From Candidatus Micrarchaeia archaeon (lineage in GTDB: Archaea; Micrarchaeota; Micrarchaeia; CAILAH01), in NCBI GenBank assembly GCA_038874595.1, contig JAVZCB010000002.1:128001-192000 (forward strand): a DNA stretch of 64,000 nucleotides, written 5' to 3'. Below are positions 34,659 through 56,734 of this stretch, piece after piece; the stretch's first letter is position 1, and each line of letters opens with the position of its first letter. A model generated the notes under the pieces. It searched no databases. It had not been told where the DNA came from and saw nothing but the letters and a program-made list of their open reading frames with translations. A program made the translations under genes and the position numbers.

Positions 34659-34713
34659 CACTCTTCTCTTTTTATGAAATGTTTTAAACATTAATAACCC
34701 AAAATTTCCAGAT

Positions 34714-35082
34714 GGGGCCATGGTGCAACCTGGCAACACGGCTGGCTCCAGACGAAGGGCAGACACCTACGGTTTCCGCCCTTCGCAACCCTACTTTCCC
34801 CTACGGGAAAAGGGACTGGTTTAATGAGAACTTTTTGGATGGCTAAAGGCCTCACCAAAAGAAGTTCGATGATTGCATAAACTGGAGCTTGTCAACACGC
34901 CCATTTGCATATGCAAATGGCGCATCATCCGCTTTGGCGGATGCTTGTGACATGACCTGTCGTGTTGTATTGAGAAACCAGCAAATCGGGGTTCAAAAGA
35001 GGAGAGGAAGGGGGCTTTGCCCCCTCTCTCCCTCTACTCTCATACCTCTGAGGGGCGTGAAATGGAAATCCTCGTGGCCCCA
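34714..35082 (+). tRNA. tRNA-Trp(CCA) with two introns: 37/38 (34752-34976, 225 nt) and 59/60 (34998-35068, 71 nt)
   Basis: Acceptor GGGGCCA/TGGCCCC-A; anticodon stem GCTGG/CCAGC with CT-CCA-G; T stem CGGGG/CCTCG; TTCA/TGGA helix with 3-nt bulges. Confidence 0.9.
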
Positions 35083-35134
35083 TCCTTATTAAAGCTTAAA
35101 ATACTTACGACAGACATTTAAAAGGGGTGTATAT

Positions 35135-35545
35135 ATGGATTTAAAGAAAACATGGGAACTTGCAAAAATGCCAGTAGTTGCTTTGGTAGTCTTAAGCATA
35201 CTTTCTTTGATTATAGGTGTGCTTGCCCCAACAATGGGTATGATTGTTGGGTCGCTGGTTGGCCTGATAGGTCTAATTATATACATATATGCAGGTTACG
35301 TGGCAGCCAAAAACAAGATGGGGCTCGTTGAAGCCGGCCTGGTTGGTGCTGTTGTGGCGTTGGTTTCCGGCATTATCAACGGCATACTCGGCTTGCTGGC
35401 TGGCATGTTTATGATGGGCCCGAACGCACCAGCGTTTATTATAACACTCGGCTTGCTGGCAGTAGGCATCGTTGTCGGCGTGGTAATCGGTTTTGTACTG
35501 GCATTAATAGGGGCTGTGCTAGCCGGCTTTATAGGAAAGAAGTAA
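35135..35545 (+). CDS. Gly-rich 4-TM membrane protein
   Basis: Hydrophobic helices with GxxxG patterns; SD GGGGTG. Confidence 0.75.
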   Translation: MDLKKTWELAKMPVVALVVLSILSLIIGVLAPTMGMIVGSLVGLIGLIIYIYAGYVAAKNKMGLVEAGLVGAVVALVSGIINGILGLLAGMFMMGPNAPAFIITLGLLAVGIVVGVVIGFVLALIGAVLAGFIGKK

Positions 35546-35546
35546 T

Positions 35547-36605
35547 TCAGAGCTTATTTTTACATTTTTTCATTATCCAGTTGGCATCAATACACTCGTA
35601 ATTGATAATAGGTATCTCCTCCAACCCTTCCAAAATATCGGCAAGCCCAGTGATGCTGTGGTTTAAAAATATCTTTCTTTTATCAAGAGGATTATCAAGG
35701 AGCTTTTCTGCCAGTGCGGTAACCTCAGAATCAGTAAGAAGGCTTGTGAGCAGCACGGGGTCAAACTCCTTGAATGTCTTTTCAATTATTTCATAAATTG
35801 CCTCTAAAGTTATGGTTTTAAGCCGTCCATCTATCTTTCCATACACTTTGTCATACATAAAATCCTTCAGCCTTGCGAACAGTTTCGCTTCCTTTGAATC
35901 AGAAAAGGCCACGTATCCCTTTTCTAAGCTTTCATTAACAAGCGCATTTATGCAGTTATCAACCCGCTCACGCTGGCAACACCCAAGCGCAACCGCCTCA
36001 TATGGGAGTTTCTTAAGATAACCCAGTCTTTCAGAATCATTGATATCTGAGAATACATACGCAAGCTTATCTGCAAGCATCACAACGTTCCATTCCTGCG
36101 GGACCTTCTCGCTCACATCCAGCCGCCCACTCCCGCGGGAGTGGTAAAGGATCCCACCAGCTGTTTCAACACATATATTAGTTCCCTTTCCTGCCCTTTC
36201 AACAAGCTCGAGAACAACAATACTATTTTTCTCGTGCCTGAAACCAGGCCTTATTTTAGCGAGCAGTGCCTCACCAGGATGGCCGTAAGGAGTATGGCCG
36301 ATATCATGCCCAAGCGCAACAGCTTCACATAAATATTCATTTAACCCCAGCCGCATTGCGATAAGTTTTGAAATCCACACAACCTCATTTGTATGGGTTA
36401 GCCTAGTTCTTATATGAGGATTATCTGGGACAGTGTAAACCTGTGTTTTGCTTTCAAGCCTTCTTAGAGACTTTGATTGTGCTATTTTATATGAATCAAT
36501 GAAAAAGGGCGAAAACCTCCCATAAAGCCCCTTTTCATCATCATTCTCGCAAAACCTCCTTCCATTATCAGGATGCCTTTTAAGCTTCTTCATGCGAAAA
36601 TTCAA
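35547..36605 (-). CDS. HD-domain dNTP triphosphohydrolase (dGTPase-like)
   Basis: RRLESKTQV, RTRLTHT, GHDIGHTPYGHPGE, ADKLAY..SDI.D. Confidence 0.9.
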   Translation of the reverse strand: MNFRMKKLKRHPDNGRRFCENDDEKGLYGRFSPFFIDSYKIAQSKSLRRLESKTQVYTVPDNPHIRTRLTHTNEVVWISKLIAMRLGLNEYLCEAVALGHDIGHTPYGHPGEALLAKIRPGFRHEKNSIVVLELVERAGKGTNICVETAGGILYHSRGSGRLDVSEKVPQEWNVVMLADKLAYVFSDINDSERLGYLKKLPYEAVALGCCQRERVDNCINALVNESLEKGYVAFSDSKEAKLFARLKDFMYDKVYGKIDGRLKTITLEAIYEIIEKTFKEFDPVLLTSLLTDSEVTALAEKLLDNPLDKRKIFLNHSITGLADILEGLEEIPIINYECIDANWIMKKCKNKL

Positions 36606-36636
36606 ACATTTCTGTTTTAATAATATTGCGTTCTCC

Positions 36637-37668
36637 TCACTCAGGGTATGCCTCCTTGATTAATTTTTGCATTTCAGGTGATGCAAAGTGCTCTCTCACC
36701 GGCCTGAGTACCTCGGCAAGTTCCCTTGCCATAGCAGCTTTCAGGTCCATCGGATGTAGTTTTTCTTCCTTGTACATTTTTTCCAACTCATTGTAGCTGC
36801 TAATTTCAACATTTCCTCCAAACTTCTCAGGCCGCTCAACAAGAAATCTTTTCCCTTTCCTTTCAAGAAGCGGGAACATAACCACCTTTGCAAATGCAAG
36901 CACACCGTTTCCTTCAACCTGCCCTACTGGACAGTATGCCTTTGCAAATTTTTTCTTTATATCCTCTTCACTATCAAGCAGGTCAATCTTTGACTCCGGC
37001 TCAGACGAGCTCATCTTACCCCCAGACAGCCCAGGCATCATAGGGTTCATAAGATGTATCCTTTTCCTGTAGCCTATTTTAGGCAATATTTCTGCGGCAA
37101 GCACAAATATTTTCCTCTGGTCAAGCCCTCCAAACTGTGCATCAACACCAAGATACTCCTCATCAAGCGCCTGCAATAAAGGATAAAGCAATCCACCCAG
37201 CTTTGGGTTATCAACCTGCTTTACCACTTCCGCCCCCGCTTTCTTTGCATCGTGCACACTCACGATAGACGAAAGCCTATATACATCTAGCGTGTATTCC
37301 CTGCTCAATTGCATATCTGTGCCTTTCACAAACCTTAGCTTTTTGATATCCACACCTACACTTTTCAACAGCTCTTTCATTATATGCTCATAATACACAG
37401 TCCTTTTTGCAAGCAGCTCCCACGGCGCCTTCATATTATCAAGATAGGCGTGCAGGTCGGCCAGCAAAATAGTTACCTCACACTCAGCATCTAAAAAATC
37501 CGCAATTTTCATAGCCGGCACGAAGTACCCTATATGAGGCCTCCCAGTAGTAGCAGTTCCAAGATATATTTTAAGATCCCTCTTTTCAAGTATACTTCTA
37601 AGCTCCTCTTCGCCTATAACCTCTTCAAGGTTTCTGGTTATTAATTCATATTTTCTGCCGGCGTCCAT
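36637..37668 (-). CDS. tyrS: Tyrosine--tRNA ligase
   Basis: [31 protein letters not shown]. Confidence 0.97.
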
Positions 37669-37671
37669 GCA

Positions 37672-38757
37672 CTATTTTTTATCCTGATTGCTTTTTAATC
37701 TTATAATCCTGGAGCGACCTTTTCCGACATTCTCTTTTACTTCAATTATCCCAGATTTCTCCATTTTTGTAAGGTAATTTCTCACAGTTCTCTCATTCAT
37801 GCCATCAAGCTTGGCATACAACTCACCGCTACTTATCTCACCATTCTTGAGTATTTCAATGATCTTTTTTTCTACCTCTCCAAGCTCAACCTCAACCTTC
37901 TCGATTTTTGCCTGCCGCGACTTTTGTGCAGCCGCCGCTTCCTCAACACTTTGCACATCGAGTTTGGGCAGCCCTTTTTTTTCGGCAATCCTCCCCGCTG
38001 AAAGAAGTAGGCCGATACCAACCCTCGCATCACCGTTAAATTTGTACGCATGCGCAGCACACACACCAATCGCCTCAGGCGAATATGAGCTGAACGCAAG
38101 CCGCGCCCTCTCCTCCAGTATCTGTTTAAGCTGTGGGACAGTATATGGTTTAAACTCAACATCTCTGTTTATTACGGAGCTCCTTATGCGCGGGTCCAGG
38201 GCGGCGAGCAGCCCAACATCATTAACAATCCCAATAACACTTATTTTTACACCATAAACCTCATTCATCCTGCTGATATCATATAACACATCGCCGTGCC
38301 CACTTGCTACCAACCGGTCCATCTCATCAAGCACGACAACAACAAAAATCCCCTTCTTTTTTATTATCTCAGCCATTCTTTTAAGCACATCCTCAACCGC
38401 AGCCCCTTTCATAGGCGATATATATCCCACACATCTTGCAATCTCACTTAAAATCCCAAACCTCGTGCCCATATGCCAGCAGTTTACATAAGTGATGCGG
38501 ACCTTTCCAGAATATTCGGCGAGCTGCCTAATTACGTACTTGAGCACAGCTGTTTTTCCCGTCCCAGGCGGGCCATAGATAAGCAAGCTTTCAGGCTTCC
38601 TACCATTAAGTGCAACCTTAAAATTATGTGCAATCTCATTAATTTCCCTTTCCCTCCCAGGCAACCTTTCTGGAAGGTACTCTGGAAGCAGTACATCCTC
38701 ATTGAGAAGAAGCTCGCCATAATCCATATACGACACCTTTACAGCAGCCGACACCAC
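37672..38757 (-). CDS. cdc6: Cdc6/Orc1 replication initiator (alternative start 38727)
   Basis: Y.PE.LPGRE, GPPGTGKT, YVNC, LDEMD, GDAR, C-terminal wHTH. Confidence 0.93.
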   Translation of the reverse strand: MVSAAVKVSYMDYGELLLNEDVLLPEYLPERLPGREREINEIAHNFKVALNGRKPESLLIYGPPGTGKTAVLKYVIRQLAEYSGKVRITYVNCWHMGTRFGILSEIARCVGYISPMKGAAVEDVLKRMAEIIKKKGIFVVVVLDEMDRLVASGHGDVLYDISRMNEVYGVKISVIGIVNDVGLLAALDPRIRSSVINRDVEFKPYTVPQLKQILEERARLAFSSYSPEAIGVCAAHAYKFNGDARVGIGLLLSAGRIAEKKGLPKLDVQSVEEAAAAQKSRQAKIEKVEVELGEVEKKIIEILKNGEISSGELYAKLDGMNERTVRNYLTKMEKSGIIEVKENVGKGRSRIIRLKSNQDKK

Positions 38758-38771
38758 ACCATAAATAATAC

Positions 38772-39497
38772 CTAAAACCCAGCGGCACTTTCAAACACCG
38801 GCTGGCTAGGATAAAGCACAACACCTTTCCCTTCAACCATCTTAAGCGGGACCATCTTTTTGAAATGATTCGTCCCGCGCATCTTTACAACTTCAAGTGC
38901 AAAATCCCTGACCTCTTTTTTCCTGATAGAATGTATTGCAATGAACCCATCAGCAATAAACTCAACGCCAAACTTAGCCTTCATATCTCCAAGCGTGTTT
39001 AATTCGCCTTCTGACGTGATAAGTGAAGTAACACCCCATTTCTTTAGGTTTGCGAACAGCTGCAGCACAGCCTGCCTCATCTTATAATCATTCTCAAAAA
39101 GCAATGCAAAAGAGGTTATCGAATCAATAACAACCCTCTTAATTCCCATATCCTTGATTGTATCTTCGATCACGGTTCCATCCTTGAAAAACTTTTCAGC
39201 CTCATGCGGAGCATACTGCATAAACCTGAACTTACCTTTTTTTTCAAGCATCTCAAAATCCCAACCGAACCTCTTCATATGCCGGTAAACCTGCAATTTT
39301 GGTTCTTCAAATGTTATATAAAGACCGGATTCACCATATACAGCCGCCCCATTATGCAGAAACTGCAACGCAAGCGTGCTTTTTCCAGCACCCGCATCGG
39401 CAGCAACCATAATTATAGATTCTCTTTCAAAACCGCCTTCTATCATTTCATCAAGGCCCTCAATACCAGTTGGTGCCCTGCCATTCTCGTTTGCCAT
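38772..39497 (-). CDS. KaiC-like (RecA/RAD55) single-domain ATPase
   Basis: TGIEGLDEMIEGG, AGAGKS, ITFEE, VVIDS, VKMRG. Confidence 0.9.
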   Translation of the reverse strand: MANENGRAPTGIEGLDEMIEGGFERESIIMVAADAGAGKSTLALQFLHNGAAVYGESGLYITFEEPKLQVYRHMKRFGWDFEMLEKKGKFRFMQYAPHEAEKFFKDGTVIEDTIKDMGIKRVVIDSITSFALLFENDYKMRQAVLQLFANLKKWGVTSLITSEGELNTLGDMKAKFGVEFIADGFIAIHSIRKKEVRDFALEVVKMRGTNHFKKMVPLKMVEGKGVVLYPSQPVFESAAGF

Positions 39498-39514
39498 AAT
39501 ACCACCATGTCTTT

Positions 39515-39712
39515 TTACTTGTTATTATTGATAATATTCTCAACGAGCTCTCTTCTCCCAGTAATACGCACCAGTTCTTCAATATACTCTTTTCTAAATG
39601 AAATTTCATCCCTGCTCCTTTTAAGCGCCTCCGCTGCCAGGGTTTCAGCAACAGGCCCAAAAACCTTCTTTGCTTTTTCAACCATCTTTTTAGTTAAAGG
39701 TGTTGCATCCAT
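39515..39712 (-). CDS. Small helical protein with a GPVA motif
   Basis: 65 aa; SD-like GGAAGG; tightly packed between the roadblock and KaiC genes. Confidence 0.65.
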   Translation of the reverse strand: MDATPLTKKMVEKAKKVFGPVAETLAAEALKRSRDEISFRKEYIEELVRITGRRELVENIINNNK

Positions 39713-39727
39713 ATTAATAACCTTCCT

Positions 39728-40096
39728 TCACCCACCAAGTATATCAGATACCTTTTTGCTGGCGTTCTCCATGCTGAGCAGCACAAGGCCTAGGTTTGCG
39801 TTTTTACTTACCAAGCATGCAAGTATTGCCATACTCCCCGCCCCGGTTGCAACAAGCTTTCCATCACCACTTTCCACAATTACCTGGTTAAATCCACCTA
39901 TTTTTAGCTCGTCAGCAGATGTTTCAGCGGTCCCTACAAGCGCAGCAGTCATAGCCGCTATCGTTCTGCCATCCACATAGTTAGGCATATCGCTTGCAAC
40001 CATCAGCCCGTCCCGGCGCACGATTGCACTAGCACTAATATCACCAACTTTTCTCAGTTCAGCAAGTATTGTCTCCAACTCCTGCCTTTTTTCCAT
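39728..40096 (-). CDS. Roadblock/LC7 domain protein
   Basis: SAIVRRDGL, IAAMTAAL, NLGLVL. Confidence 0.92.
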   Translation of the reverse strand: MEKRQELETILAELRKVGDISASAIVRRDGLMVASDMPNYVDGRTIAAMTAALVGTAETSADELKIGGFNQVIVESGDGKLVATGAGSMAILACLVSKNANLGLVLLSMENASKKVSDILGG

Positions 40097-40157
40097 GATA
40101 TTAGATGCGGTTTAAACATTTATAAATAAGCAGCCCGATGTAATATTAGGTGTTCAT

Positions 40158-40556
40158 ATGGTGGCCAAAAAGCTCAAATCTAAGGTTAAGAAATCTGGAC
40201 GGGCAAGCAAAATTAGGAAGAAGGCGACCGCCCGGAAAACGGCCAGAAAGCCGGCTCCGATAGAGAAAAAAATCGAGCACGATCTTGAACCAGTCCTGCG
40301 TGAAGAGATAAGGCAAGACATAGAGAGCGAGATTAAGGAGGAAGTTGCAAACGAGGTTAAGAACGCGATTGAGGTTGAAGAGGAAGACAATATGCTCAAA
40401 ATTGCAATCAGTGTCATAATAAGTACAATACTTACAGCATTGATTGCTGGTGCTGTTTGGTGGTTTAACCCGCTCCCAGCATCCCAGATAACCTTAATAG
40501 CAATCGTTGTTTGGATTATAATAACAATAGTGGCATACTTCTTCCAGAGTAAGTAG
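40158..40556 (+). CDS. Membrane protein with a Lys/Arg-rich N-tail, acidic linker and 2 C-terminal TMs
   Basis: Composition; SD AGGTG. Confidence 0.7.
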   Translation: MVAKKLKSKVKKSGRASKIRKKATARKTARKPAPIEKKIEHDLEPVLREEIRQDIESEIKEEVANEVKNAIEVEEEDNMLKIAISVIISTILTALIAGAVWWFNPLPASQITLIAIVVWIIITIVAYFFQSK

Positions 40557-40629
40557 ACATTTGGAAAAATCCTAAATAAGCTTTTTGGAAATTTTTTCAT
40601 ATTATAAACATTTTCTGTCCTTTAATTTT

Positions 40630-43600
40630 ATGCGCGTGCCATTTTTTATCTTAGCATTGCTTTTTGCACTTTCTCCATGCTTCGCTTTCAATGCAACTTA
40701 CCTGGACCCAACAATTGAAAAGCCGTGGGAATTTAACAGCGTCTCGCTACCAGATTTTATAACAAACGTGCTTCTCAATAGCCCTGGCAGGACAGACATT
40801 GACAATAGCTATATGTTTGCGCTTTCACCGGAAGTATCTTCACAGCTGAGCGAAGAGATACGCCACGCTAAGAATGCAGACCAGAATCTGAAAACGCTCG
40901 GTGAAAGTAGATACCTCCTCAAAGATGCAATCCAGAGTCATCTTAACGAGACAGTTGGAAAATCTGCCGCAGCAATCGCTTACATGCTTGTTCCTATGCT
41001 TGGGATGTTTTTGGCCATTGATGCGGGAACAGGGGCGATATATGAGGTTTCAGATCTTGGGGCGGAGATGCTATCAATATGTAAAAACCATTATACGGCA
41101 GCGGTAGCGGCAGTCGAGGAAAGCGAGCTGGCATACAACGGCCTGCTATCAAAGGTTTCTATGGGTTACAGGGAGCTTTGGCTTATGGGTGCTCTCAATC
41201 CTTCCTATAAAGGCAGGTATGCCAACGACATCGCACAGCTAGAGTCGCGCCTTGCATCAATAGATGGCAAGCTGCTGCGTGAGCGGGAAGCCAGCATTAA
41301 GAAATATGCACATATGACTGCAAATGACCCGTCAGCTTATCATCCTCTTGTTTCAGAGTCAGTGTTCCAGGCCAGGTACCTGCTTGATGGGCAGGAATCA
41401 GCATTCTCAAAGCTTATTTTTGCATACACAGCCCAGAATTCAATAAAAGAGGGCCTTATCAAAGAGCGCGAATCAGCAAAGTCTTCCGCAGAAACACGTG
41501 CCGGGCAAATATCTGCAGAATACTCTGAGGTAAGTAAGAAATATGGGCAGATAACAGATGCAGATGTTGTATACTTTGGTATTGCTACGCTGGACACGCT
41601 TGATTCACCTTCAACCCATATTTCAAAAGCTTCTGAAAACATTGCAGAATACACTTCCATCATCTCAGAAGGTGACAGGGTTTATGCTGCAAAATCATAC
41701 GGATATGTTATAGACTCAATAAATGCATATTACTTAGCGCTTTCAAAGATGGATAGTGCATCATATAACCTGAAAGAGGCGGCGCGGCGCGGAATCCTGA
41801 TAGTCAGCTCTGCCGAAAATATAACACAAAAAGAGTATATTGCAGCAACAGCTGCAGCATCTGCATTTATTCCTAAGACTGCGGCAGAGCAACAGCAGCT
41901 CTCTCTTGCTCGTAGCATGATCGAAAAGGCAGAAAAAGAAATGGCTCTTGCCAGCAATACTCCTGCTGAGAGGATATCACATCTTAAAATTGCGCTGAAC
42001 AGCCTGCGCCTTGCCCGTGCATATCTTTCTCCAGACGAAGTGTTCCGTGCAAATGCCAAGGACTCAGCGGTGAGCTCACTTGATTATTTGAAATCGGTGA
42101 TTGACCGTGCAAAAACAGATTCAATCGATGTTTCTTATGAAGAATCATATTATAAAAGCAAAATGCTTGCATTGCAGAGCGGCAATTTAGCCGCTGCAGA
42201 AATGGTAAACATCTCACTCACATGCAACAACCTGACGGAACAAATATTTATGCGTGGCGCTGCACAGTATTCACATCTTTCATCACGTTATGCCACATTG
42301 CTACCGCTGGCAACGTATTTTGAATCGCTTGATGGCAAGCCATTGAAAGAGTACACATTGCTCAACCCATACATAGACGCCACTGGCACTTTTGATAAAT
42401 ATCTATCGCTCGGGCATTACAAGGAGATAACTGGGCTCATAGCAGGGCTCGAAGCGCAAATACGTGTAAAAACGAAAGAGCTCATCCGCGAATCGCTTGA
42501 AAGAAACGCTGTTGTGAGCGTCAATTATGACAACGCAACGATTGTTTTAGATGTGCCTATCACGCGCAAGGTTGATGTATCTACATACAGTATTCTGGAT
42601 TTAGAGTACAAAGGGCCTATTTCAACGAGCATTCGAATTCCCTATGACGTTTCAAGATCAAAGGCCAAGTATGATACGGCAGGGCTTTCTTATAGTTATA
42701 CAAACAACCAGCTCAATATTCTTATCAACCAATACACCCCAAATAAGATGTATACAATTTCTTTTGAGGACACGCAGGTTCTTGCAAGAACACAATCCGT
42801 TAAAAGGGAATCTACCCTTATTACGCCAACGCTGCTCAGGGTAAAAGTTGAGAGAAAAATAACCTCGCTCGGAACCCCCTATCTTAAAATCCCGGCAAAC
42901 TATGATTATTCATATGTGTTGTATTATGATGGAGAGTACGTTGGGAGTTTTAATTATGATGCGGAAATAGCACGACCGATACCTGCAGGGGAGCATATAT
43001 TAACAATGGTATATTCAATTGAAAACCCTTTTGTTGCTACATTGAACAGCGTATCTAGCACAAAAACCAGCACAACAATGTCTGTTATCATTAAAAACAC
43101 AGTCCCATTTGATATTAGCGACGCTATGATAAGCTATGACATTCCGGCAGTATCCCCATCTTCTGTATTAGTATCATCTTCGGATTGTGAAATAAAATCA
43201 ACTGCCAGCACACATTTTCCAACATACACGCGTCTTACCATAAACGTGAAGGCATTTTCAGCCAGCTCAAAATGTACTTTTGACATCCATGCAAGCACAC
43301 CTATAAGCAAGGAGTATATTGAGGAGGAAATTGTACGCTTATCTAAAGACAATACTGCATTGCAGAGTAAAGAGGTGGAAAACCACCTTAACAAGGCACG
43401 GAACGCATTCGAGACTGGAAAGTATGAAGATGCTCTTAAAGCAATCTCCGATGCGGACAAGACGCTGGTTGAGGCAAAGCGAGCAACCGAGCAAGCCAAT
43501 CGCCAGGGAGAAGAGATAGAAAGGTTATCAAAACAAACCGCCTCGGTGTTAGCCAACTTATCAAATATGAATGATGTGGAAGTCCAAAAAGCGCTTGCCA

Positions 43601-44499: not shown

Positions 44500-44527
44500 T
44501 ATTATAAAATGAAATGAAAGCAAGGAT

Positions 44528-44662
44528 TTATTCTTCTTCCTCCTCTTCTTCCTCCTCTTCTTCGTCTTCCCAGTCTTCTTCCTCTTCATCCCATTCCTCA
44601 TCTTCTTCCTCTTCATCGATATCTTCATCTTCCTCATCAAAGTCGTCGTCACCGAACATCAT
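44528..44662 (-). CDS. 44-aa hyper-acidic microprotein
   Basis: MMFGDDDFDEE...W...W...E11; 36/44 residues D/E; SD GAGGTG just upstream of the ATG; mixed synonymous codons. Confidence 0.72.
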   Translation of the reverse strand: MMFGDDDFDEEDEDIDEEEEDEEWDEEEEDWEDEEEEEEEEEEE

Positions 44663-44729
44663 CTTTACACCTCTGTTAGCTTTTGTTTTCTTGTCAAAGT
44701 TTTTAATACTTATGTGGGGCAATTTTCTT

Positions 44730-46493: not shown

Positions 46494-46508
46494 GGCTAAA
46501 TTAGGAAA

Positions 46509-47441: not shown

Positions 47442-47486
47442 CAAGAGTATAAAATATATAACAAGCCCCCAAAGAATAAGCATAAA

Positions 47487-47642
47487 TGCGGCTGCCGGGA
47501 TTTTCACATGCACCCAGCACGTTATTGTATGGAGTGCCCTGCTTTGAACCCGGGTCTTAGCCTTTTTGAGAAGCACCGCATTTTTGGCGCTCAAAAAAGC
47601 GGCATGGCAAGGCCATGTCCTACCAGGCTAGACTACAGCCGC
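47487..47642 (-). tRNA. tRNA-Gly(GCC) with two introns: 37/38 (47564-47604, 41 nt) and 59/60 (47501-47542, 42 nt)
   Basis: Reverse complement GCGGCTG...TGGCC-TT-GCC-A|intron|A-GGCTA...CCGGG-TTCAAA|intron|T-CCCGG-CAGCCGC-A. Confidence 0.92.
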
Positions 47643-47701
47643 CTGTTATTGTATCATTCAAATTGGAAAACTATTTATTAGTTTCCAGGCCAATTTTTTT
47701 T

Positions 47702-48226
47702 ATGCGAAGGGGCGGGCAAATGGAGAATAATACAAGTGTACTGATGAATAAGCTGGTACAGGAGGGCGCATCGAAGAAGCTGGCCAGTTTTATATGTCGC
47801 CTTAACGAGGACCTTTCACTAATAAACCCATCCAAAAAGATAGATTTGGTTGATCACAAATTATTCATTTTTGAGGAAAATTCCCCGCTTGCAGTTATAG
47901 GTTTTTTAGGAAAGATAAATAATACCATCTCTTTTATTTATGACTCGCGCCATTTTGATGAATATGGCAGCACGGCACGCACAGTATTTTCACAGCTCTT
48001 TGCAGAGGATTACGAGAGGCTTCTGCAAAGCGGGGATGACCGGGAAATCCCAGCCTCATTAATTCACGAGTTTCACTATTTTGTAGCTAAACTTAACAGG
48101 TTTGGCAATGTGCTTGAAGTTGAGTTATACTCAAAGGATAGTGAGCTTTTGGCAATGCTAAGCGATATCCCAAAAGAAGCAGTTCTAGCAGACCGCAATA
48201 ACACGGCAGATTCAGGTTTGAATTAG
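47702..48226 (+). CDS. Hypothetical protein
   Basis: Open frame filling the gap; start trimmed to avoid tRNA-Gly; no recognisable motif. Confidence 0.55.
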   Translation: MRRGGQMENNTSVLMNKLVQEGASKKLASFICRLNEDLSLINPSKKIDLVDHKLFIFEENSPLAVIGFLGKINNTISFIYDSRHFDEYGSTARTVFSQLFAEDYERLLQSGDDREIPASLIHEFHYFVAKLNRFGNVLEVELYSKDSELLAMLSDIPKEAVLADRNNTADSGLN

Positions 48227-48242
48227 CAGCCAGAACAAAACA

Positions 48243-50282
48243 TTATTTTTTATGCGTGTCCCTCCCTTCTTGCTGTGATAATAATGGGCATTTTGGGTTT
48301 GCACACCTTACAACCACACGCTTGTTGATTATATACTTAATTACAGGGGCGCCACACTCTTCGCATTTCTTGACAAAGCTTACCTTGTGCACACCAAAAG
48401 GTATGGGATAAGCAACCTTACAGTTAGGCCACCCCGTGCATCCTATAAATATTCTCTTATCCTTGGTTGTTTTAATGGTAATCTCTTTTCCGCATTGTTC
48501 GCATTTCATAAGGAATCCCTTACTCCTCTCGCTTTGCCTGAGCGCCGAAAGAAGCTCTTTTCCTATACTGTACTCGTTTTTCTTGAATTCATCAATTATT
48601 TTACTGAGGACATCTCTCGCCTCGGCAAGCACCTTTTCCTCTTTTTCCTTTCCTTCTTGGATTTTTTCAACCTTATCTTCAAACTGCTCTGTGAGATGCT
48701 CATCCAGGATTTCAGGGGAGTATTTCATCAGCGCATCATGCACAGCCATCCCCAAGCTTGTCACCCGCATGCTTTTTTCTCTGACATAATCCCTTTTGAA
48801 TAACGTATCAATTATAGTCGCCCGTGTTGCTTTCGTGCCTAGGTTTTTCTTTTCAAGCACTTTAACAAGAGAAGTCGCAGTATATCTTGCAGGCGGCTTT
48901 GTCTCCTTTCTATCCTTTGTTATTTTGTCCGCTACGAATTTCTGGCCTTTGTTAAGCTCTGGCAACCTCTCTTCATCAGCTGTATAATACTTGCCGTAAA
49001 GCCCAATCCAGCCGGGCTTCTTAATAACAATCCCCTGCCCCTTGTACCTCTCGTTGCCCATTTTAAGCCGCACAGTGGTGCTTTCCTTTACAGCCCATTC
49101 ACCAAAACACGCAATGAACCTTCTTGCAATGAGGTCATAAAGCTTTTTCTCCTGCTCGCTCATCTTTCCATATATCCCAGTTGGGTGTATTGCAGGGTGT
49201 GCCGCATCGCTCTTTTCACCTTCATGTGGTTTTAACATGCCTTCCTCCAAAAGGAATTGCGCATCCTTGCGATACTCATCTATTTTTGACATCTTTTCAA
49301 GGATTCCCTTCAGATTGAGTGAGAGAGGAAGCTTTTGCGAGCTCGTTCGCGGGTAACTAATGTAGGAGTTTTCATAAAGGTTTTGTGAATATTGTAAAAC
49401 CTCCTTTGGAGACATTTTATATGCACGGTATGCCTCAACCTGCAGTGACGTCAAGTCAAACGGTGCAGGAGGTGCAACCTTAAACATCTTTTTAGTTACT
49501 TCTTCAACAATCCCTTCCTTGCTTGTGGCACTAAGCACAGCATCTGCTTCCTTCTCATCCCAGAATTTTTCTTTTTCATGCAAATACTTTATCTTATCTT
49601 TCTCAACAGCAACTTCCCAATACGGAACAGGTTTAAATCCGGCTATTTCTCTTTCCCTTTTCACAAGGATATCAAGAGTAGGCCCCTGTACGCGCCCGAT
49701 ACTTAGCACTTTATATGCGCCAGCTTTTCTGATGGCATCCATAAGTAGCCTGCTTAGATTAATTCCCCAATACCAATCAAGGAAATGCCTGGCCTCGCCC
49801 GCATATGCGTTATTATAATCAAGTTCACCCATGTTTTCGTATGCACTCACTATATCCTCTTTTGTAAGTGCAGAAAATTTCATTCTCTTCCCAGATGTGC
49901 GCTTTGCAGAAAACCTGATCGCATTGAATCCGATAAGCGACCCCTCGACATCATAATCGCACGCGGATACAATGACATCTGCTTTTTTGGCAACTTTCTC
50001 TATGGTAGTTATATAATCCTTGGTGTGTGCAGATGCCTTTGACGCCTCATATGCTGGTACCCACCCAATATCAAATTCCGGAACACGCCTATTGCCCCCT
50101 TTTTCTTTAAGTGAAAACAAGTGCCCCACAGCGCTAACAACGTAAATCTTCTTTCCGTCCCTTTCAAGCTCATAATAAGGAATTTTATGCTCGCTCTTCT
50201 TTCTCGCCTTATCATCAAGAAAACGCGCAATCTTCTCCGCTACCTTAGGCTTTTCTGCAATTATTACGAGTGTTTCCGCCAT
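48243..50282 (-). CDS. topA: Type IA DNA topoisomerase
   Basis: IAEKP, GHLF, DYDVEG, SIGRVQ, ISYPRT, AHPAIHPT, GTKATR, C-terminal Zn ribbons. Confidence 0.96.
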   Translation of the reverse strand: MAETLVIIAEKPKVAEKIARFLDDKARKKSEHKIPYYELERDGKKIYVVSAVGHLFSLKEKGGNRRVPEFDIGWVPAYEASKASAHTKDYITTIEKVAKKADVIVSACDYDVEGSLIGFNAIRFSAKRTSGKRMKFSALTKEDIVSAYENMGELDYNNAYAGEARHFLDWYWGINLSRLLMDAIRKAGAYKVLSIGRVQGPTLDILVKREREIAGFKPVPYWEVAVEKDKIKYLHEKEKFWDEKEADAVLSATSKEGIVEEVTKKMFKVAPPAPFDLTSLQVEAYRAYKMSPKEVLQYSQNLYENSYISYPRTSSQKLPLSLNLKGILEKMSKIDEYRKDAQFLLEEGMLKPHEGEKSDAAHPAIHPTGIYGKMSEQEKKLYDLIARRFIACFGEWAVKESTTVRLKMGNERYKGQGIVIKKPGWIGLYGKYYTADEERLPELNKGQKFVADKITKDRKETKPPARYTATSLVKVLEKKNLGTKATRATIIDTLFKRDYVREKSMRVTSLGMAVHDALMKYSPEILDEHLTEQFEDKVEKIQEGKEKEEKVLAEARDVLSKIIDEFKKNEYSIGKELLSALRQSERSKGFLMKCEQCGKEITIKTTKDKRIFIGCTGWPNCKVAYPIPFGVHKVSFVKKCEECGAPVIKYIINKRVVVRCANPKCPLLSQQEGRDTHKK

Positions 50283-50342
50283 CTGCTTTTATTCCATGCG
50301 CAAACTATATAATTATATTATTTAACCCCTCTCAATTTTCCC

Positions 50343-50666
50343 ATGTTTCCAACAGACCCAAGACAAATGCAGCAGATGCTCAGGCAAATGGGCATAAAAA
50401 GCAGGATGATTGAAGCAAAGAGAGTAATAATAGAATGTGATGGCTCGAACATTATAATTGATAACCCACAGGTAATGGAGATGGATATCAAAGGAGAGAA
50501 GAATTACAGTATAAGCGGGCGCGTGCACAGCGACCTGCAATTAAGTGAGGAGGATATAAAGCTTGTGATGGACGGTGCCAACGTATCCCGTGAGGAAGCT
50601 ATAAAGGCATTAGAAAAAGAGGGAGATGTTGCGTCTGCCATAATTTCATTGAAGGGCGATAAATAA
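50343..50666 (+). CDS. nac: Nascent polypeptide-associated complex protein
   Basis: DPRQMQQM..QMGI and a UBA-like EEDIKLV...A..AL...GD. Confidence 0.93.
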   Translation: MFPTDPRQMQQMLRQMGIKSRMIEAKRVIIECDGSNIIIDNPQVMEMDIKGEKNYSISGRVHSDLQLSEEDIKLVMDGANVSREEAIKALEKEGDVASAIISLKGDK

Positions 50667-50675
50667 AGGAAATGG

Positions 50676-51455
50676 ATGGTGTTATGGATGTCATCTATCA
50701 ATGAGATAGGCAAAGTTAGGGTTTCACCGATGAACAGCCTGCTGCTGCGCGGGAAATCTCCTTTTCAGGAAGCATTTGAAAAGGGGAACATTAAGTGTAT
50801 CGTTGAAGAGCTTAAGCAGCTGCCAGGCACGCCTGCCAACAAGTTTAACATGCTATTGGTGTTAAGCACTTCAACAGGCAAATACGAGCTTGCAAAAAAG
50901 GTAGGTGTAGCGGCGTATGATATTCTTTCTAAAAAAGACATAGCAAGGCTATTATCATACCAGAACGGGCCATCTGAGAAGATAGCGTTGTTTGTTGAAA
51001 TAATGCGCACACGATACGGTACCCTAGGACCTTCACAGCAAACATATCTTTTCAATGCGCTCAAACAGTATTACAACCAATATAAGATATCAGGGAACAG
51101 CCTTCCAAAGGAGTGGCTTTCCTTATGTATAGAAGATATATACAAGTATAGCAAGTTTAGCGCAATCCATATGTATCTTAAGATGTATTCAACAAAGGCC
51201 CCATCTATATATGAGCGCAACGTGGCATCTTTTATTGCAGAGCTCATCAGGAAAAACACAAAGTTGCTCAGTACACTTGCCCACGGCTCATATTGCAGGG
51301 TAAATGTTCAGTATGAAGCGCTGCATGCCCTTAATTTGGTATCACCTGAGCAGGCGCGTATGTTTGCGCACGTGCTTCTCGAAAGGCAGTTCAGGAATAA
51401 TGTGTTTTATGATATGCGCGTAATCGAGCTTGCAAAAGCCGTTTTAGGGGAATAA
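50676..51455 (+). CDS. Hypothetical helical protein
   Basis: Long open frame filling the gap; no motif recognised. Confidence 0.55.
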   Translation: MVLWMSSINEIGKVRVSPMNSLLLRGKSPFQEAFEKGNIKCIVEELKQLPGTPANKFNMLLVLSTSTGKYELAKKVGVAAYDILSKKDIARLLSYQNGPSEKIALFVEIMRTRYGTLGPSQQTYLFNALKQYYNQYKISGNSLPKEWLSLCIEDIYKYSKFSAIHMYLKMYSTKAPSIYERNVASFIAELIRKNTKLLSTLAHGSYCRVNVQYEALHALNLVSPEQARMFAHVLLERQFRNNVFYDMRVIELAKAVLGE

Positions 51456-51465
51456 GCACATCAAA

Positions 51466-52788
51466 CTAAAAATTTGTCACTGCACTGCGCCCTCTCAATT
51501 CACCAGCATAATCAGTATACATCATTTCTATAACTTTCTTTCTTTCTTTTGTTTGCCCAAGCACCCAGCTAAGCTTGACAAAAGCAGTCTCTGGAAGCCA
51601 ATCGCAGTTGTGCCCAATCACACCAGTTTCCTTAAGCATCCTTCCAGCAGTATATACATTAAGGTTCAGCCTTCCATATATTGTCTGTGGTGCAATTACA
51701 ACATATATTCCTGACTTTGTGAGTTCACCAATCTCTTTTATTATGGGCGTTGCAAGCGCGTCACCGAACGGGTTTGATGGGACGTGCCCAAGCCCAGTAG
51801 CTGCTAGGACCACCCCTTCATAATCAGACAATTTTGAAATGAAGCTTGGCTTTATTCCAGGATGTATATAAACCAGTGCGACGTTCTCGCTGAATTTATT
51901 GATAAGTTCCATATCACCGCCAGCTGGCACGTTAGTGCACTCACCTATGTATTCTATTTTCTTTTTTGAATAGTCAACTTCTGCTACAGGTGTTGCGTTA
52001 ATGCTCCTGAATGCATCGCGCCTTGAAGTGTGCATCTTTCTAACACGGGTACCAAGGTGTATATGTGCTGCACCATCTGATGTTGTTGCGTGCATTGCAA
52101 CATAAACACCAGGCCTGCCTGTGCTGGCATAAAAGGCTGCATTGAGAACATTTTCCTTTGCATCAGAGGACCCCCTGTCAGAGCTTCTTTGCGCCCCTGT
52201 TAGCACAACCGGCCTTTGTGGGTTGCGAATCATAAACGATACTGCGGCAGCACTATACCCAAGCGTGTCAGTGCCGTGAGTTACAACCACGGCTTTGCCT
52301 TTTTTTAGTTCCTTAAACACCTCTTCACCAATTATTTTCCAGTGCCGGGTGTTCATGTCTTCTGAAAGTATTGACATCACATTCTTAAAGCGCGCCCCGC
52401 CAAACGTGTTCATTTCAGGGAAGGATTCTCTAAATTCCTCTGGCGTTGCAGCAGGAAACACTGCACCGGTAGAGTATTCAACCCGTGATGATACCGTGCC
52501 CCCAAACATCAGCACCGCAATATCATATTCTTTGTTATCTTCAGTTTTACCAGCACCATGCCGTTTTTCTTTTAAGGCACCTTTCTTTTTTATGAGCTTT
52601 AATGTATCATTGAACACCACACCTAGGTTATACCCATTGTCAAGCTTAAGCTCAATAATATCTGTATTCTCAGAATAATTCTCTAAAAGAATTCCCTCCC
52701 TTTCGGCCCCGCCAAATTCTATGGAGACTCTATCTCCAATATCTATATTCCTTTTCCATAACTGTTCACGAACTTTCCTGCTGTACAT
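51466..52788 (-). CDS. gatD: Glutamyl-tRNA(Gln) amidotransferase subunit D
   Basis: KLDNGYN.G, GGTVSSRVEY.TG, HGTDT, GAQRSSDR, KMHTSRRDAF. Confidence 0.95.
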   Translation of the reverse strand: MYSRKVREQLWKRNIDIGDRVSIEFGGAEREGILLENYSENTDIIELKLDNGYNLGVVFNDTLKLIKKKGALKEKRHGAGKTEDNKEYDIAVLMFGGTVSSRVEYSTGAVFPAATPEEFRESFPEMNTFGGARFKNVMSILSEDMNTRHWKIIGEEVFKELKKGKAVVVTHGTDTLGYSAAAVSFMIRNPQRPVVLTGAQRSSDRGSSDAKENVLNAAFYASTGRPGVYVAMHATTSDGAAHIHLGTRVRKMHTSRRDAFRSINATPVAEVDYSKKKIEYIGECTNVPAGGDMELINKFSENVALVYIHPGIKPSFISKLSDYEGVVLAATGLGHVPSNPFGDALATPIIKEIGELTKSGIYVVIAPQTIYGRLNLNVYTAGRMLKETGVIGHNCDWLPETAFVKLSWVLGQTKERKKVIEMMYTDYAGELRGRSAVTNF

Positions 52789-52792
52789 CGAT

Positions 52793-53749
52793 TCACCTGT
52801 ATCCCTCAACAGAAACGTCAGGAAGTTTCTCATTTCTCTTACAGAACCCCTTCAAAAAATTATATGCGAGCTCGCCAAGGTCCTCAACCCAGTACCCTCC
52901 TTCAAGAACACCAAAGATAGGCACATCTAGCTCTTTTGCGCATGCATCAAGAAGCCTTCCTATCTTCATATATGTCCTTGGCTCTTTTATTTTTGTTACT
53001 GTACCAAAGAACAGGTCTTTGTAATAAGTATTAAATCCAATGCCAACAGCAATAATATCCGGTTTTACTTCATCAACAACCTTAGGTATAACTTTGTATA
53101 GCTTATCCAAGTATTCCTTATCTGTAATCCAGAGCCGGTTTTCGTAACAGCGCACCCGCGAAGTGCTTTCTTTCTCTTTTCCGGTATAAGGATATACTGA
53201 ATCAGCGTGCTGATGAACTGACAGAAGCCATACCCTCTCATCATCTACAAATATATTGTTGGTACCATTACAAAAATGCGCATCGAGATTGATTATAAGA
53301 GGATTCCTTGATTTTCCAGCAGCAAGAAGTTTTGCAATTGCAACCGCCACATTGTTTATATAAGAGTACCCGCCAAAGAAATCCCTCCCTGCATGGCCTC
53401 CTTTTGGCCGTGTAACCGCAAATGCAAAACGTTTTTTGCTAATTGCATACTCTGCCGCGCAGCACGCCGCACCAGCGGCAAGAGAGGCAATCCTATAAGT
53501 ATTCTTATCAACCGGCTCGTCAGGAAAGTACGTGTTGATTCTCTTGTAATTTTTAATTTCATCAAGATACTTTGCAGAGTGCACTCTCTCAAGATCTTTT
53601 CTTGATGCGGGCTTTGGCTTGGCAACAGTATATTCCAAATCAGATGTCCTAATGTAATCCATTATTGCAGCGAGCCTTTCTGGCGTATCTGGAAATTTAC
53701 CACTAAACTTCATAAATTCCTTTGAATAGTATATGCTGATTTTAGTCAT
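52793..53749 (-). CDS. Histone deacetylase-family protein with an altered active site
   Basis: P..PERL, L.RVH..KY, RPKGGHA, DAHFCNGT, S.HQ, LEGGY. Confidence 0.85.
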   Translation of the reverse strand: MTKISIYYSKEFMKFSGKFPDTPERLAAIMDYIRTSDLEYTVAKPKPASRKDLERVHSAKYLDEIKNYKRINTYFPDEPVDKNTYRIASLAAGAACCAAEYAISKKRFAFAVTRPKGGHAGRDFFGGYSYINNVAVAIAKLLAAGKSRNPLIINLDAHFCNGTNNIFVDDERVWLLSVHQHADSVYPYTGKEKESTSRVRCYENRLWITDKEYLDKLYKVIPKVVDEVKPDIIAVGIGFNTYYKDLFFGTVTKIKEPRTYMKIGRLLDACAKELDVPIFGVLEGGYWVEDLGELAYNFLKGFCKRNEKLPDVSVEGYR

Positions 53750-55212
53750 TTACATAACCTCAAAAAGTCTATTGAAAACCCAAGCAGCGAGTTGAGGTAT
53801 CTTATTATGCCACACAGCACCCCGTCACTACCACCAACCTTTTCCCCCATTGTTGTATTTATTGGGATGTCTGGAAGCACATTCTTGCCTTTATCTTCCT
53901 CAACGATTTCATTGTTTAGCACGGCCTCTGCAACCATCATTTTCACAGATGCATCAATCTCATCCATGCGTTTTGTTAGCTCAGTTATCTCTGACTTGTT
54001 AACTTTTCTGCCCAAGACCTCTTTTATCTCGTTTGAATAATTTGTAAGATTCTTGTCATACTTTGTGCCATTAAGTTTCTTTCTTGCATTTACAATAGCA
54101 TCCAAATCAGCCTTTGCCTTGGATTTCATAAGCTCATACTGTGCATTTGTCATCTGCACTTCGGCTTTTAGGTTTGTTAGTATACTTTTGTATTGGCCAG
54201 CCAGCTTTATAGCCAATTTATACTTACCATCATTTTTCAGTTGACTTATCTCCGTAGTATAATTTTCAGCAGATTTAATTGAGGCCTCAGTTGCATTATC
54301 CTTCCAATCGGCCTTTGAATACATAGATTTTATGCTGTTGTAAAGGTCATATACCGCCCCATACTCTTCTAAGTATGTTTTTTCTCGTGTTTCCAGGTAT
54401 TTAATCCTGGTATCCGTCTGCACCTTTATTTTTGCAGCCCTTTCCCTGGCTTGAGGTACCGTGGCAAGCGTTGTAACAATATCTTCACAGAGGCCCTTCG
54501 CCTCATTTGCATTATCATAGGTCGGATGCATCTCTTCACAGTACGGGTAATCATAGAGCTTGTTATCATCCATTATTTTCATTGTATCGCTCATATTTTG
54601 TATGAGCCTGCAAAGCTCCCTGTAATCTTCCTCAGTCTTGGGGTTTTTTGCCTTTTCTGAAGCAGCAAGTATTGAATTATCAACCGCCTTTCTTTGGATG
54701 TTCCAGCTCATTATTGAGTATATCAAATCATCCCTTATCTGCATTGCACACAGAGGTACACGGTAGCACGCCTTAATGCACGATTCCTTATCATAGCATG
54801 GCATCGCATCCACACCAGTGATCCTTTCACACACCACCCTCTCCGGATATTCACTTTCGTTAAAAGCCCGTATGAGCTCCCGTATCCTTGCTGTTTTCTC
54901 ATCAACACCAGATGTTTCCCAGATGTTCTGGACAAGCACGGCGGCAATGCTGTCCGTGTCCATCATTACCTTTGAATCGTCACCAATCATCATCATCTCA
55001 ACGCCATCCACAGTTATTATCCAGTAATCTTTTCCCCACGCAGAGAGCTTGTTTAATTCGTACTTCTCCTGCGGCTCGATATATTCCCCAGCGACTTGTG
55101 CCGGGGAGGCCGCAAAACCAACTGCAAAAACCATAACTGCAATTATCGCGGTTATAAGGGAGATGCGCAAGGCCCCTGCGTTTAAGAATGTATACATGTT
55201 ACTATTTTGCAA
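53746..55212 (-). CDS. Secreted coiled-coil protein with a Cys cluster
   Basis: Signal peptide, C...PC.D.ESC...C..VPLC, long heptad region, amphipathic C-terminus. Confidence 0.7.
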   Translation of the reverse strand: MQNSNMYTFLNAGALRISLITAIIAVMVFAVGFAASPAQVAGEYIEPQEKYELNKLSAWGKDYWIITVDGVEMMMIGDDSKVMMDTDSIAAVLVQNIWETSGVDEKTARIRELIRAFNESEYPERVVCERITGVDAMPCYDKESCIKACYRVPLCAMQIRDDLIYSIMSWNIQRKAVDNSILAASEKAKNPKTEEDYRELCRLIQNMSDTMKIMDDNKLYDYPYCEEMHPTYDNANEAKGLCEDIVTTLATVPQARERAAKIKVQTDTRIKYLETREKTYLEEYGAVYDLYNSIKSMYSKADWKDNATEASIKSAENYTTEISQLKNDGKYKLAIKLAGQYKSILTNLKAEVQMTNAQYELMKSKAKADLDAIVNARKKLNGTKYDKNLTNYSNEIKEVLGRKVNKSEITELTKRMDEIDASVKMMVAEAVLNNEIVEEDKGKNVLPDIPINTTMGEKVGGSDGVLCGIIRYLNSLLGFSIDFLRLCK

Positions 55213-55221
55213 CAGAGGTTT

Positions 55222-55827
55222 TTAACACTTAATAATAGGTCCCCCAACTATCCTACCAAGGGCTTTCATAATTGACTCGTGTACTTTCTCTTTCTCTTCC
55301 GCTCCGTTTATGAGGTGTACCTTTTTTGAAAAAAACCCCTCTTTATACATTTGTAGGTAGTTACTGCGCACCTTACTCAAAAAATATGTGCGCTCAAACA
55401 CTTCTCTTCCACCGCGTAGCCGCCCTATGCACAGCGCCGGGTCAGCATCCAAAACAAGCACAATGTCCGGTTTGACAAGCCCAAAGCCCTCAATGATTTT
55501 TTTGCCGTTATCATAATTGAATCCCTGGGCGCACTGATACGCAAGCGTTGAGTGAGCATACCTGTCAACAACTAGGTGTCTTTCACTGTCTCCCTTGAAC
55601 TTCTCAAACAGTTGCACATCTTTCAGCATATCCATCAAGAACATAGGGAATAGTGATTCGCCGCTCAGCTCAAACCCCGCCTTCCCTTTGAGTATATTGT
55701 TAAATAACTCCCCATAAATCCCTTCCCTGTCCGGATATTTTTTCTTTTCGCATCTTATTTTTCTGGAGAGCATCTCGATTTGAGTTCCTTTTCCAACCCC
55801 ATCTATCCCCTCAAAGCAGATTATCAT
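55222..55827 (-). CDS. tmk: Thymidylate kinase
   Basis: FEGIDGVGKGTQ, DRY..S..AYQ, KPD. Confidence 0.93.
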   Translation of the reverse strand: MIICFEGIDGVGKGTQIEMLSRKIRCEKKKYPDREGIYGELFNNILKGKAGFELSGESLFPMFLMDMLKDVQLFEKFKGDSERHLVVDRYAHSTLAYQCAQGFNYDNGKKIIEGFGLVKPDIVLVLDADPALCIGRLRGGREVFERTYFLSKVRSNYLQMYKEGFFSKKVHLINGAEEKEKVHESIMKALGRIVGGPIIKC

Positions 55828-55904
55828 ATTTCCAATCTCGCAGCGTAATCTTAAAAACAGGCATGCACAGAAAAACTTTTATTATCAATAAATAAAATTA
55901 ATGT

Positions 55905-56477
55905 ATGGTTGATGCAAAGCAGTGCCCTCGTCATATGCTTGGCAAAAGCGCTTGCAGGACAGGTTTCGGCAAAGAGAGCTTTGGGCAGCCGCTTTCTGAA
56001 GAATCATATGCCTGGCTAAAACAGGCAGCTGCAGGGGAGAACATATGCAGGCGCCACGCGTTTTCTGAACTTAGCGACAAAAACTGCCCGGATGAGCGAG
56101 CACGGCAGTTTGCACTTGATGCTCTCATCACAGAGAAAGAGAAGGATTTAAGGATGCTCTTAATAATGTATCTCGCTTCCCAGCGTGATGTAAGGGTTAT
56201 CCAGCACGTAATAAAAGACATTGAAGATGCGGCAAAGGAAATCTACTTAAACAAAAACGCCTTGAAGACGGGCGGTTATTATATAAACCACCTTCTTTTT
56301 GTGGTTAGGAAATTTATAGAGAAAGATTGTTCTGCGGTGCACGCCCTCGGGGTGTTGTATAAATCAGTTGCTGATGAAGAAGAGGTGGCCTTGAATGAGC
56401 AGATAAGGAAATTATTCCTTGATTTGTATGAGAAATACCATAAAACGCTCCCGCCAAGGATTAATGTCTATAAATAA
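55905..56477 (+). CDS. Hypothetical protein
   Basis: Open frame after an AT-rich promoter-like tract; no motif recognised. Confidence 0.55.
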   Translation: MVDAKQCPRHMLGKSACRTGFGKESFGQPLSEESYAWLKQAAAGENICRRHAFSELSDKNCPDERARQFALDALITEKEKDLRMLLIMYLASQRDVRVIQHVIKDIEDAAKEIYLNKNALKTGGYYINHLLFVVRKFIEKDCSAVHALGVLYKSVADEEEVALNEQIRKLFLDLYEKYHKTLPPRINVYK

Positions 56478-56580
56478 TGTGCATAACTCTTAATCCTTTT
56501 GAGCATCATAAGGGCGTTGACACAATGGGCTATCCCACTAGAAAGCCCATAATATAGCTTGGGCATCATGGAAACAAAGA

Positions 56581-56734
56581 TGGACCCGCCCAGATTTTCA
56601 AGAAGGAACAACCGCAACTCGCGCGTGTTCGCGAAGCGAACTACCTGGGAGCGCGAGGGGCGGATGCGCCATCGCATTGAACTGGGGATCTTTCCCGTGT
56701 CAGGGGAACGTCTTAACCACTCGACTACGGGTCC
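56581..56734 (-). tRNA. tRNA-Val(GAC) with a T-loop intron at 59/60 (56595-56675, 81 nt)
   Basis: Reverse complement GGACCCG...TTCCC-CT-GAC-AC-GGGAA...CCCAG-TTCAAT|intron|T-CTGGG-CGGGTCC-A; TTCA/TGAA helix. Confidence 0.92.

Follow-up and report, generated by a model that had tools for sequence, protein, structure and literature searches.

The 64-kb window analyzed here (C2:128001-192000, on contig C2 of a 918-kb, 7-contig, 93.5%-complete metagenome-assembled genome (MAG) of Micrarchaeota) contains three tRNA genes, for Trp(CCA), Gly(GCC), and Val(GAC), each of which is interrupted within the T loop, exactly between nucleotides 59 and 60. Very likely, these are functional single-copy genes of a Micrarchaeota (DPANN) archaeon that are interrupted by protein-spliced bulge-helix-bulge (BHB) introns. 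A sequence-only reading of the window had placed inserts of 71 nucleotides (nt), 42 nt, and 81 nt at this site in Trp, Gly, and Val, respectively, and all of the coordinates hold. The gene structures in that reading were correct for the T-loop inserts, but canonical introns at position 37/38 had to be added to Trp (225 nt) and Gly (41 nt).

The tRNA-Trp(CCA) gene is located on the forward strand (34714-35082; exons 34714-34751, 34977-34997, and 35069-35082); its canonical 37/38 intron occupies 34752-34976 (225 nt; central helix H=3/4, outer helix h1=5), and its 59/60 intron, of the relaxed hBH type, occupies 34998-35068 (71 nt). The tRNA-Gly(GCC) gene is on the reverse strand (47487-47642; exons 47642-47605, 47563-47543, and 47500-47487). 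Its canonical intron (47564-47604, 41 nt) is followed by a T-loop intron at 47501-47542 (42 nt), which has a UUCA/UGAA central helix, a 2-bp inner helix, and the bulges AAG and AAU. The tRNA-Val(GAC) gene, also on the reverse strand (56581-56734; exons 56734-56676 and 56594-56581), has the T-loop intron as its sole intron (56595-56675, 81 nt), which folds into a long hairpin with imperfect pairing, closed by UUCA(A)/(U)UGAA. With only the three T-loop inserts deleted, Trp(CCA) and Val(GAC) were called by ARAGORN, as was Gly(GCC) with an intron fixed at 37/38. The fully spliced sequences scored 119.8 (Trp), 120.8 (Gly), and 119.1 (Val) and formed 73-nt cloverleaves with 7-nt T loops.

The unspliced genes are poorly visible to common tools, as the sequence-only reading had expected. 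ARAGORN made no tRNA call in the raw window, intron mode included, and thus missed all three genes. The Rfam tRNA model gave two matches, one at 47487-47642 on the reverse strand (40.7 bits), in which the anticodon loop and the T loop each contain a 43-nt insertion, and a borderline one at 56678-56734 (29.3 bits) corresponding to Val, whereas Trp was missed. The tRNA model was the only Rfam model to reach its gathering score in the window, and no group I or group II intron was found there; the T-loop inserts are 42-81 nt long, compared with at least 200 nt expected for self-splicing introns of these groups.

All three T-loop introns share one splice geometry. Nucleotides 54-57 of the tRNA (UUCA) pair with four intron bases located two bases before the 3' splice site, namely UGGA in Trp and UGAA in Gly and Val. 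The central helix is complete in each case (H 4/4), the outer helix is the 5-bp T stem (h1=5), and the 3' bulge consists of AA and, across the splice site, U60; the helix and bulge described in the sequence-only reading were therefore correct. The 5' cut position lies two bases past nucleotide 57. In Val and Gly, a 3-nt 5' bulge is followed by an inner helix, giving a near-strict hBHBh' motif, while in Trp the 5' site is at a multiloop junction, corresponding to the relaxed hBH/BHL form. For Trp and Val, folding of the T arm together with its intron, with no constraint imposed, gives the splice geometry as the minimum-free-energy structure. The intron bodies of both fold significantly better than shuffled sequences (z = -2.4 and -3.4, respectively); the value for Gly (z = -1.4) is not significant.

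The same register recurs throughout the genome. All 21 T-loop introns that we found have a complete central helix (H 4/4), and the 18 scored by our pipeline have a 5-bp outer helix. The list of inserts has 22 entries, one of them a doubtful element from the 16S-23S internal transcribed spacer; their 3' ends carry T in 20, G in 22, a purine in 22, and A in 19, 19, and 18 at successive positions. In some other tRNAs, nucleotides 54-57 read UUCG, and the central helix co-varies across this genome and its relatives: A57 is matched by U in 32 of 32 cases and G57 by C in seven of nine.

The genome also encodes the corresponding enzymes. A single EndA gene at the start of contig C7 (C7:3-733) is of the epsilon2 type and matches PDB 4FZ2, the three-unit epsilon2 EndA of ARMAN-2, in two fragments (residues 151-260, E 2e-43; residues 264-387, E 3e-40) with ~65% identity that cover the alpha and beta units. 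Its nearest named relatives, from Candidatus Micrarchaeota MAGs, are up to 94% identical and have open reading frames (ORFs) of 390-392 aa. The RtcB ligase is present as well (PF01139, E 1.8e-172, C3:116748-118052). We propose that in the pre-tRNA the 5-bp T stem would serve as the outer helix, while nucleotides 54-57 would pair with the intron 3' end and leave the bulge of AA and U60; the 5' cut, two bases past nucleotide 57, would fall in a 3-nt bulge (Val and Gly) or at a loop junction (Trp). A broad-specificity EndA of the epsilon2 type would then cleave both sites, after which RtcB would join the exons and probably circularize the intron.

The alternative that the three loci are pseudogenes, disrupted by small repeat elements that were never removed, gains something from the Trp insert, most of which consists of a copy of a hairpin element that is dispersed in the genome. 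We consider it very improbable. No second copy of Trp(CCA), Gly(GCC), or Val(GAC) was found in the 93.5%-complete assembly, so that the interrupted genes are the sole ones for these tRNAs, and no intact paralogue exists there; the exons are perfectly conserved in relatives, those of Val being 100% identical in four of them. Moreover, every insert lies at the single register that yields EndA splice geometry, with a co-varying helix, and a matching endonuclease and ligase are encoded.

To place the three genes in their genomic context, we took an inventory of tRNA introns in which each segment able to form a 4-bp central helix with pairs on either side was spliced out and the product was scored by ARAGORN. 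The search was run over the whole genome for one intron and locally for two or three introns, together with a T-loop-specific scan. The whole genome was scanned because masking of long ORFs hid real tRNA genes, and tRNA identities were assigned anew on the basis of the BHB register and of identity elements because the free-intron mode of ARAGORN misassigns anticodons (Arg(GCG) was called Cys, and two 'Pyl' calls appeared). The Gly gene of the window was called Leu-CAA in this mode, but its G1-C72, C2-G71, G3-C70, A73, and short variable loop are in keeping with Gly and not with Leu. The pattern scan for T-loop inserts produced many chance matches. One 13-nt candidate (C2:8814-8826) was discarded because it lies in what appears to be a coding sequence and lacks a tRNA 5' half.

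The inventory comprises at least 44 tRNA genes with ~57 introns, or ~1.3 introns per gene; 39 of 44 genes (~89%) are interrupted, and five carry no intron. Genes for tRNA-Tyr, initiator tRNA-Met, and tRNA-Arg(CCU) are missing from the inventory. Thirty-three introns are at position 37/38, 21 at 59/60, two in the D loop, and one at 56/57, so that 59/60 accounts for 21 of the 24 non-canonical introns. The claim that T-loop introns are systematic is thus supported by an intron-aware count of the whole genome: 21 of at least 44 tRNA genes have one. The carriers are Thr-CGU, Thr-UGU, Leu-CAA, one Met, Gly-UCC/CCC/GCC, Pro-CGG, Glu-UUC/CUC, Asp, Trp, Val-GAC/UAC, Ser-UGA/CGA/GGA, Ile-GAU/UAU, Arg-UCG, and His. 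The introns range from 26 to 236 nt, with those of Ile(UAU) (236 nt) and Ile(GAU) (186 nt) among them. Because 21 of ~44 genes carry a 59/60 intron, its occurrence in three of three genes in the window is unsurprising (hypergeometric P ~0.1). Over the whole genome, the standard finders recovered 20 genes (ARAGORN, several with wrong anticodons) and 16 of at least 44 (Rfam model).

An element resembling a T arm plus acceptor was observed in the 16S-23S spacer (C3:80890-80960), ~150 nt downstream of the 16S 3' end. It contains a 30-nt insert of the 59/60 type (C3:80910-80939; H=4, h1=5, inner helix of 10 bp), and the 3' strand of its acceptor would form the G3:U70 pair that characterizes tRNA-Ala. 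No acceptor 5' strand or 5' half was found for this element, for which reason it is kept outside the count of 21 introns; the element may represent a relic or a split tRNA-Ala.

The preference for 59/60 may have a structural basis. The T arm (49-53/61-65) with its loop (54-60) mirrors the anticodon arm (27-31/39-43) with its loop (32-38), and 59/60 corresponds to 37/38; by copying the 5-bp stem and 7-nt loop of the anticodon arm, the T arm would make 59/60 the structural twin of the canonical site. As in canonical 37/38 introns, the first four loop bases pair with the intron 3' end beneath a 5-bp stem and the last loop base lies in the 3-nt bulge; in the 37/38 introns of this genome, this bulge is mostly AA followed, across the splice site, by A. 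Unlike in those introns, the central helix at 59/60 is built from invariant T-loop bases rather than tRNA-specific anticodon-loop bases. Nucleotides 54-57 hardly vary among tRNAs, so that the same intron 3' end (UGRAAA) would fit every tRNA, and the T loop would therefore be a default landing or retention site for introns.

Several points weigh against the splicing interpretation or parts of it. The hBH fold of Gly is 2.7 kcal/mol above its minimum-free-energy fold. The contig start and a gap of 10 N interrupt the EndA gene, the first (pseudo-catalytic) unit of which is not in the assembly. The inventory comes from our own BHB-plus-ARAGORN pipeline, in which three genes were parsed by eye and a few anticodons are tentative. 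Splicing in vivo, exon joining, and the formation of intron circles are deduced, and the putative universal adaptor at 59/60 is derived from counts.

Comparison with relatives revealed that the exons and splice geometry stay fixed while the intron bodies turn over fast. The Val(GAC) exons are 100% identical in a member of the same genus (G001) and in three further members of the family (G006, G007, and G008), while their 59/60 introns measure 49 nt, 28 nt, 48 nt, and 53-54 nt, respectively, and have unrelated opening sequences. The T-loop intron of Trp is present in the same four genomes and absent from G005; its register in the relatives is ambiguous between 58/59 and 59/60 because of runs of A. 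That of Gly(GCC) is present in G001 and G006 and absent from G003, G004, G005, and G008. In other families of the class, the Val tRNAs are mostly free of introns, with sporadic 59/60 introns. The number of Rfam-detected tRNAs per genome, a rough proxy for interruption, is 8-16 within the family (30 in G005) versus 20-46 in most other families.

The sequence-only reading had described the three bodies as unrelated to one another and structured. We found no mutual resemblance among the Trp, Gly, and Val bodies, and those of Trp and Val are structured; however, the folding of Gly is not significant, and the bodies are not orphans because Trp and Val belong to families of repeated modules. The first ~60 nt of the Trp T-loop intron consist of a purine/pyrimidine hairpin and a small second hairpin, followed by a 3' adaptor ending in UGGAAA. 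The hairpin element has three further copies in the genome (~90% identity), each next to a tRNA end: two tandem inverted copies (C2:58757-58873) end exactly at position +1 of tRNA-Ser(GCU), and one direct copy (C1:134757-134801) starts 2 nt past the tRNA-Pro(CGG) discriminator base. All four copies of the element are oriented with the same end toward the exon. The core of the Val intron is unique within this genome; in relatives, 59/60 introns in tRNAs for Ser, Asp, Arg (with two tandem copies), and Pro begin directly with this core, and 37/38 introns in Met tRNAs begin with it as well. The ends of the Gly T-loop intron (GCAGGGC ... UGUGAAAA) are similar to those of the Glu(UUC) T-loop intron.

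Sharing of intron sequence extends across genes and positions within the genome. Over 158 nt, the 37/38 intron of Leu(UAG) shares 91% identity with the 59/60 intron of Ile(GAU). Gly(UCC) and Gly(CCC) have T-loop introns that are 98% identical, and the 37/38 intron of Arg(GCG) matches part of the Ile(UAU) T-loop intron with 100% identity. Since copies at 59/60 end in the T-loop adaptor and copies at 37/38 end in bases matching the anticodon loop, the modules look like passengers and not splice signals. The intron bodies therefore look like passenger mosaics of small hairpin modules that move among tRNA genes, both at 37/38 and at 59/60, as well as in leaders and trailers. Beyond this, we tentatively raise the possibility, which we rate as less likely than not, that the T loop is a universal docking site, that RNA or DNA modules bearing UGRAAA are tolerated at 59/60 of any tRNA gene, and that the modules are currently moving into such introns, into 37/38 introns, and to tRNA ends; the constant orientation of the module toward the exon would then suggest a gain mechanism tied to tRNA processing cuts. 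A separate observation concerns tRNA-Ser(GGA), where two tandem copies of a ~43-nt repeat (CCUACAGCUUCGGUUGCCGGGGUGGUAGGGGGCGCCGGCUC) at C3:55240-55330 run straight into the 5' end of the gene.

The canonical intron of Trp is 83% identical to the homologous intron of the same-genus relative G001. It begins with a CGAAGGGC...GCCCUUCG hairpin whose opening bases ACGAAG are shared with the intron of tRNA-Gln(CUG) (C4:126573), and every family member checked has a related opening (TCGAAGGG, TCAAAGGG) in its Trp intron. Within the intron lies a perfect palindrome of 20 nt, CCAUUUGCAUAUGCAAAUGG (seen as a self-match), which resembles a stretch of the Cys(GCA) intron. The intron also contains a 7-nt complement (CUGGAGC) to the anticodon loop. 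In an Rfam scan of 34500-35300, no C/D family that would correspond to a C/D guide of the Haloferax Trp-intron type rose above chance, and no clear boxes were seen.

These data also bear on the proposal that the introns are maintained for the function of the excised, probably circular RNAs, which might act as guides or regulators. The circular-RNA idea, also raised in the sequence-only reading, is a published hypothesis. The better-than-shuffled folding of the Trp and Val bodies and the presence of RtcB are in line with such a role. However, the bodies are wholly different between relatives with identical exons, the Gly body is not significantly structured, and what is structured in the bodies consists of copies of repeated hairpin modules also found outside introns; in and around the Trp gene, an Rfam scan up to an E value of 10 gave no family match other than chance-level microRNA models. 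Because the bodies turn over so fast, we regard a function of the excised RNAs as decidedly unlikely.

A second selective explanation is that the T-loop introns are kept because they break the tRNA 3' half, which serves as an attachment site for virus and plasmid integrases. This idea, the first suggestion of the sequence-only reading, is the published hypothesis of Randau and Söll, as presented in PMC4090602. In Trp and Gly, no uninterrupted stretch exceeds 38 nt, and the two introns divide the 3' half into segments of 21 and 14 nt; the 59/60 position of Val(GAC) is kept in five family members despite the turnover of its body; and neither a tyrosine recombinase nor extra copies of the tRNA 3' ends were found in the genome. 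A search for Phage_integrase (PF00589, E <= 0.01) yielded no match in the 93.5%-complete genome, nor was a recombinase of the XerA type found. Yet the lack of integrases is equally expected in a reduced 0.9-Mb genome and is no evidence of protection. For the same reason, the absence of a tyrosine recombinase and the housekeeping character of the neighboring genes are uninformative. Several close relatives that lack the T-loop introns of Gly(GCC) and Trp show no sign of integration at these genes, and five tRNA genes of this genome carry no intron at all. Selection for protection against integration is thus improbable, and protein-spliced introns in functional genes, whose bodies look like passengers, remain our preferred reading.

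The nearest known system is that of ARMAN-2 (Candidatus Micrarchaeum acidiphilum), in which 56% of tRNAs are interrupted and 59/60 introns occur in Cys-GCA and Pro-GGG (Fujishima et al. 2011, PMC3239211). The recombinant epsilon2 EndA of ARMAN-2 cuts a 59/60 hBH intron in vitro (PMC3239211), and 59/60 is among the known positions of non-canonical introns (PMC4090602); the kind of element and its enzymology are therefore already known. Both genomes belong to the phylum Micrarchaeota and share the epsilon2 type of EndA, the 59/60 position, a relaxed hBH/BHL or strict hBHBh' geometry, several introns per gene, and a tRNA-Ile(UAU). They differ in the extent of interruption (~89% of tRNA genes and ~1.3 introns per gene here, versus 56% of tRNA genes in ARMAN-2) and in the 59/60 introns, which number 21 here and are longer (26-236 nt, versus 13 nt in the Cys example of ARMAN-2).

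In Thermoproteales, similar introns at different tRNAs and positions suggest transposition (Sugahara 2008; Fujishima 2010), and the mean density is 0.84 introns per gene, with 71 introns in 46 genes in Pyrobaculum calidifontis, according to what is given in PMC4090602 and PMC8450103. Our genome resembles these archaea in its many non-canonical and multiple introns, its similar sequences across genes and positions, and its comparable intron density. In contrast, it belongs to another phylum and has an epsilon2 endonuclease in place of the (alpha-beta)2 enzyme. Its non-canonical introns are focused on 59/60 (21 of 24), whereas those of Thermoproteales are spread over many sites, and its repeated units are short hairpin modules that also adjoin tRNA leaders and trailers.

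The genes flanking the three tRNA genes of the window are ordinary housekeeping genes, encoding an SNase homologue, an HD-domain protein, topoisomerase I, and thymidylate kinase. The longest ORF of the SNase homologue (33894-34766, reverse strand) overlaps the 5' end of tRNA-Trp by 53 nt, and an unassigned 203-aa ORF (47615-48226, forward strand) overlaps the 5' end of tRNA-Gly by 28 nt; the real start codons of both ORFs probably lie further in.

As the element class and the splicing machinery have already been described, what is new here is the census, the turnover data, and the module sharing, the added value of which is modest. Our findings add to the ARMAN-2 example a set of tRNAs in which interruptions are very frequent (~1.3 introns per gene) and half of the genes are cut at 59/60. 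Common tRNA finders miss most of the tRNA genes of this lineage, and statements on the completeness and codon usage of Micrarchaeota MAGs therefore need intron-aware searches. The fast turnover of intron bodies on fixed exons provides comparative material on how archaeal tRNA introns are gained. If the T loop is indeed a docking site, the family would be a natural system for catching the gain and loss of tRNA introns, as in Gly(GCC) and Trp, whose T-loop introns are present in some relatives and absent from others.

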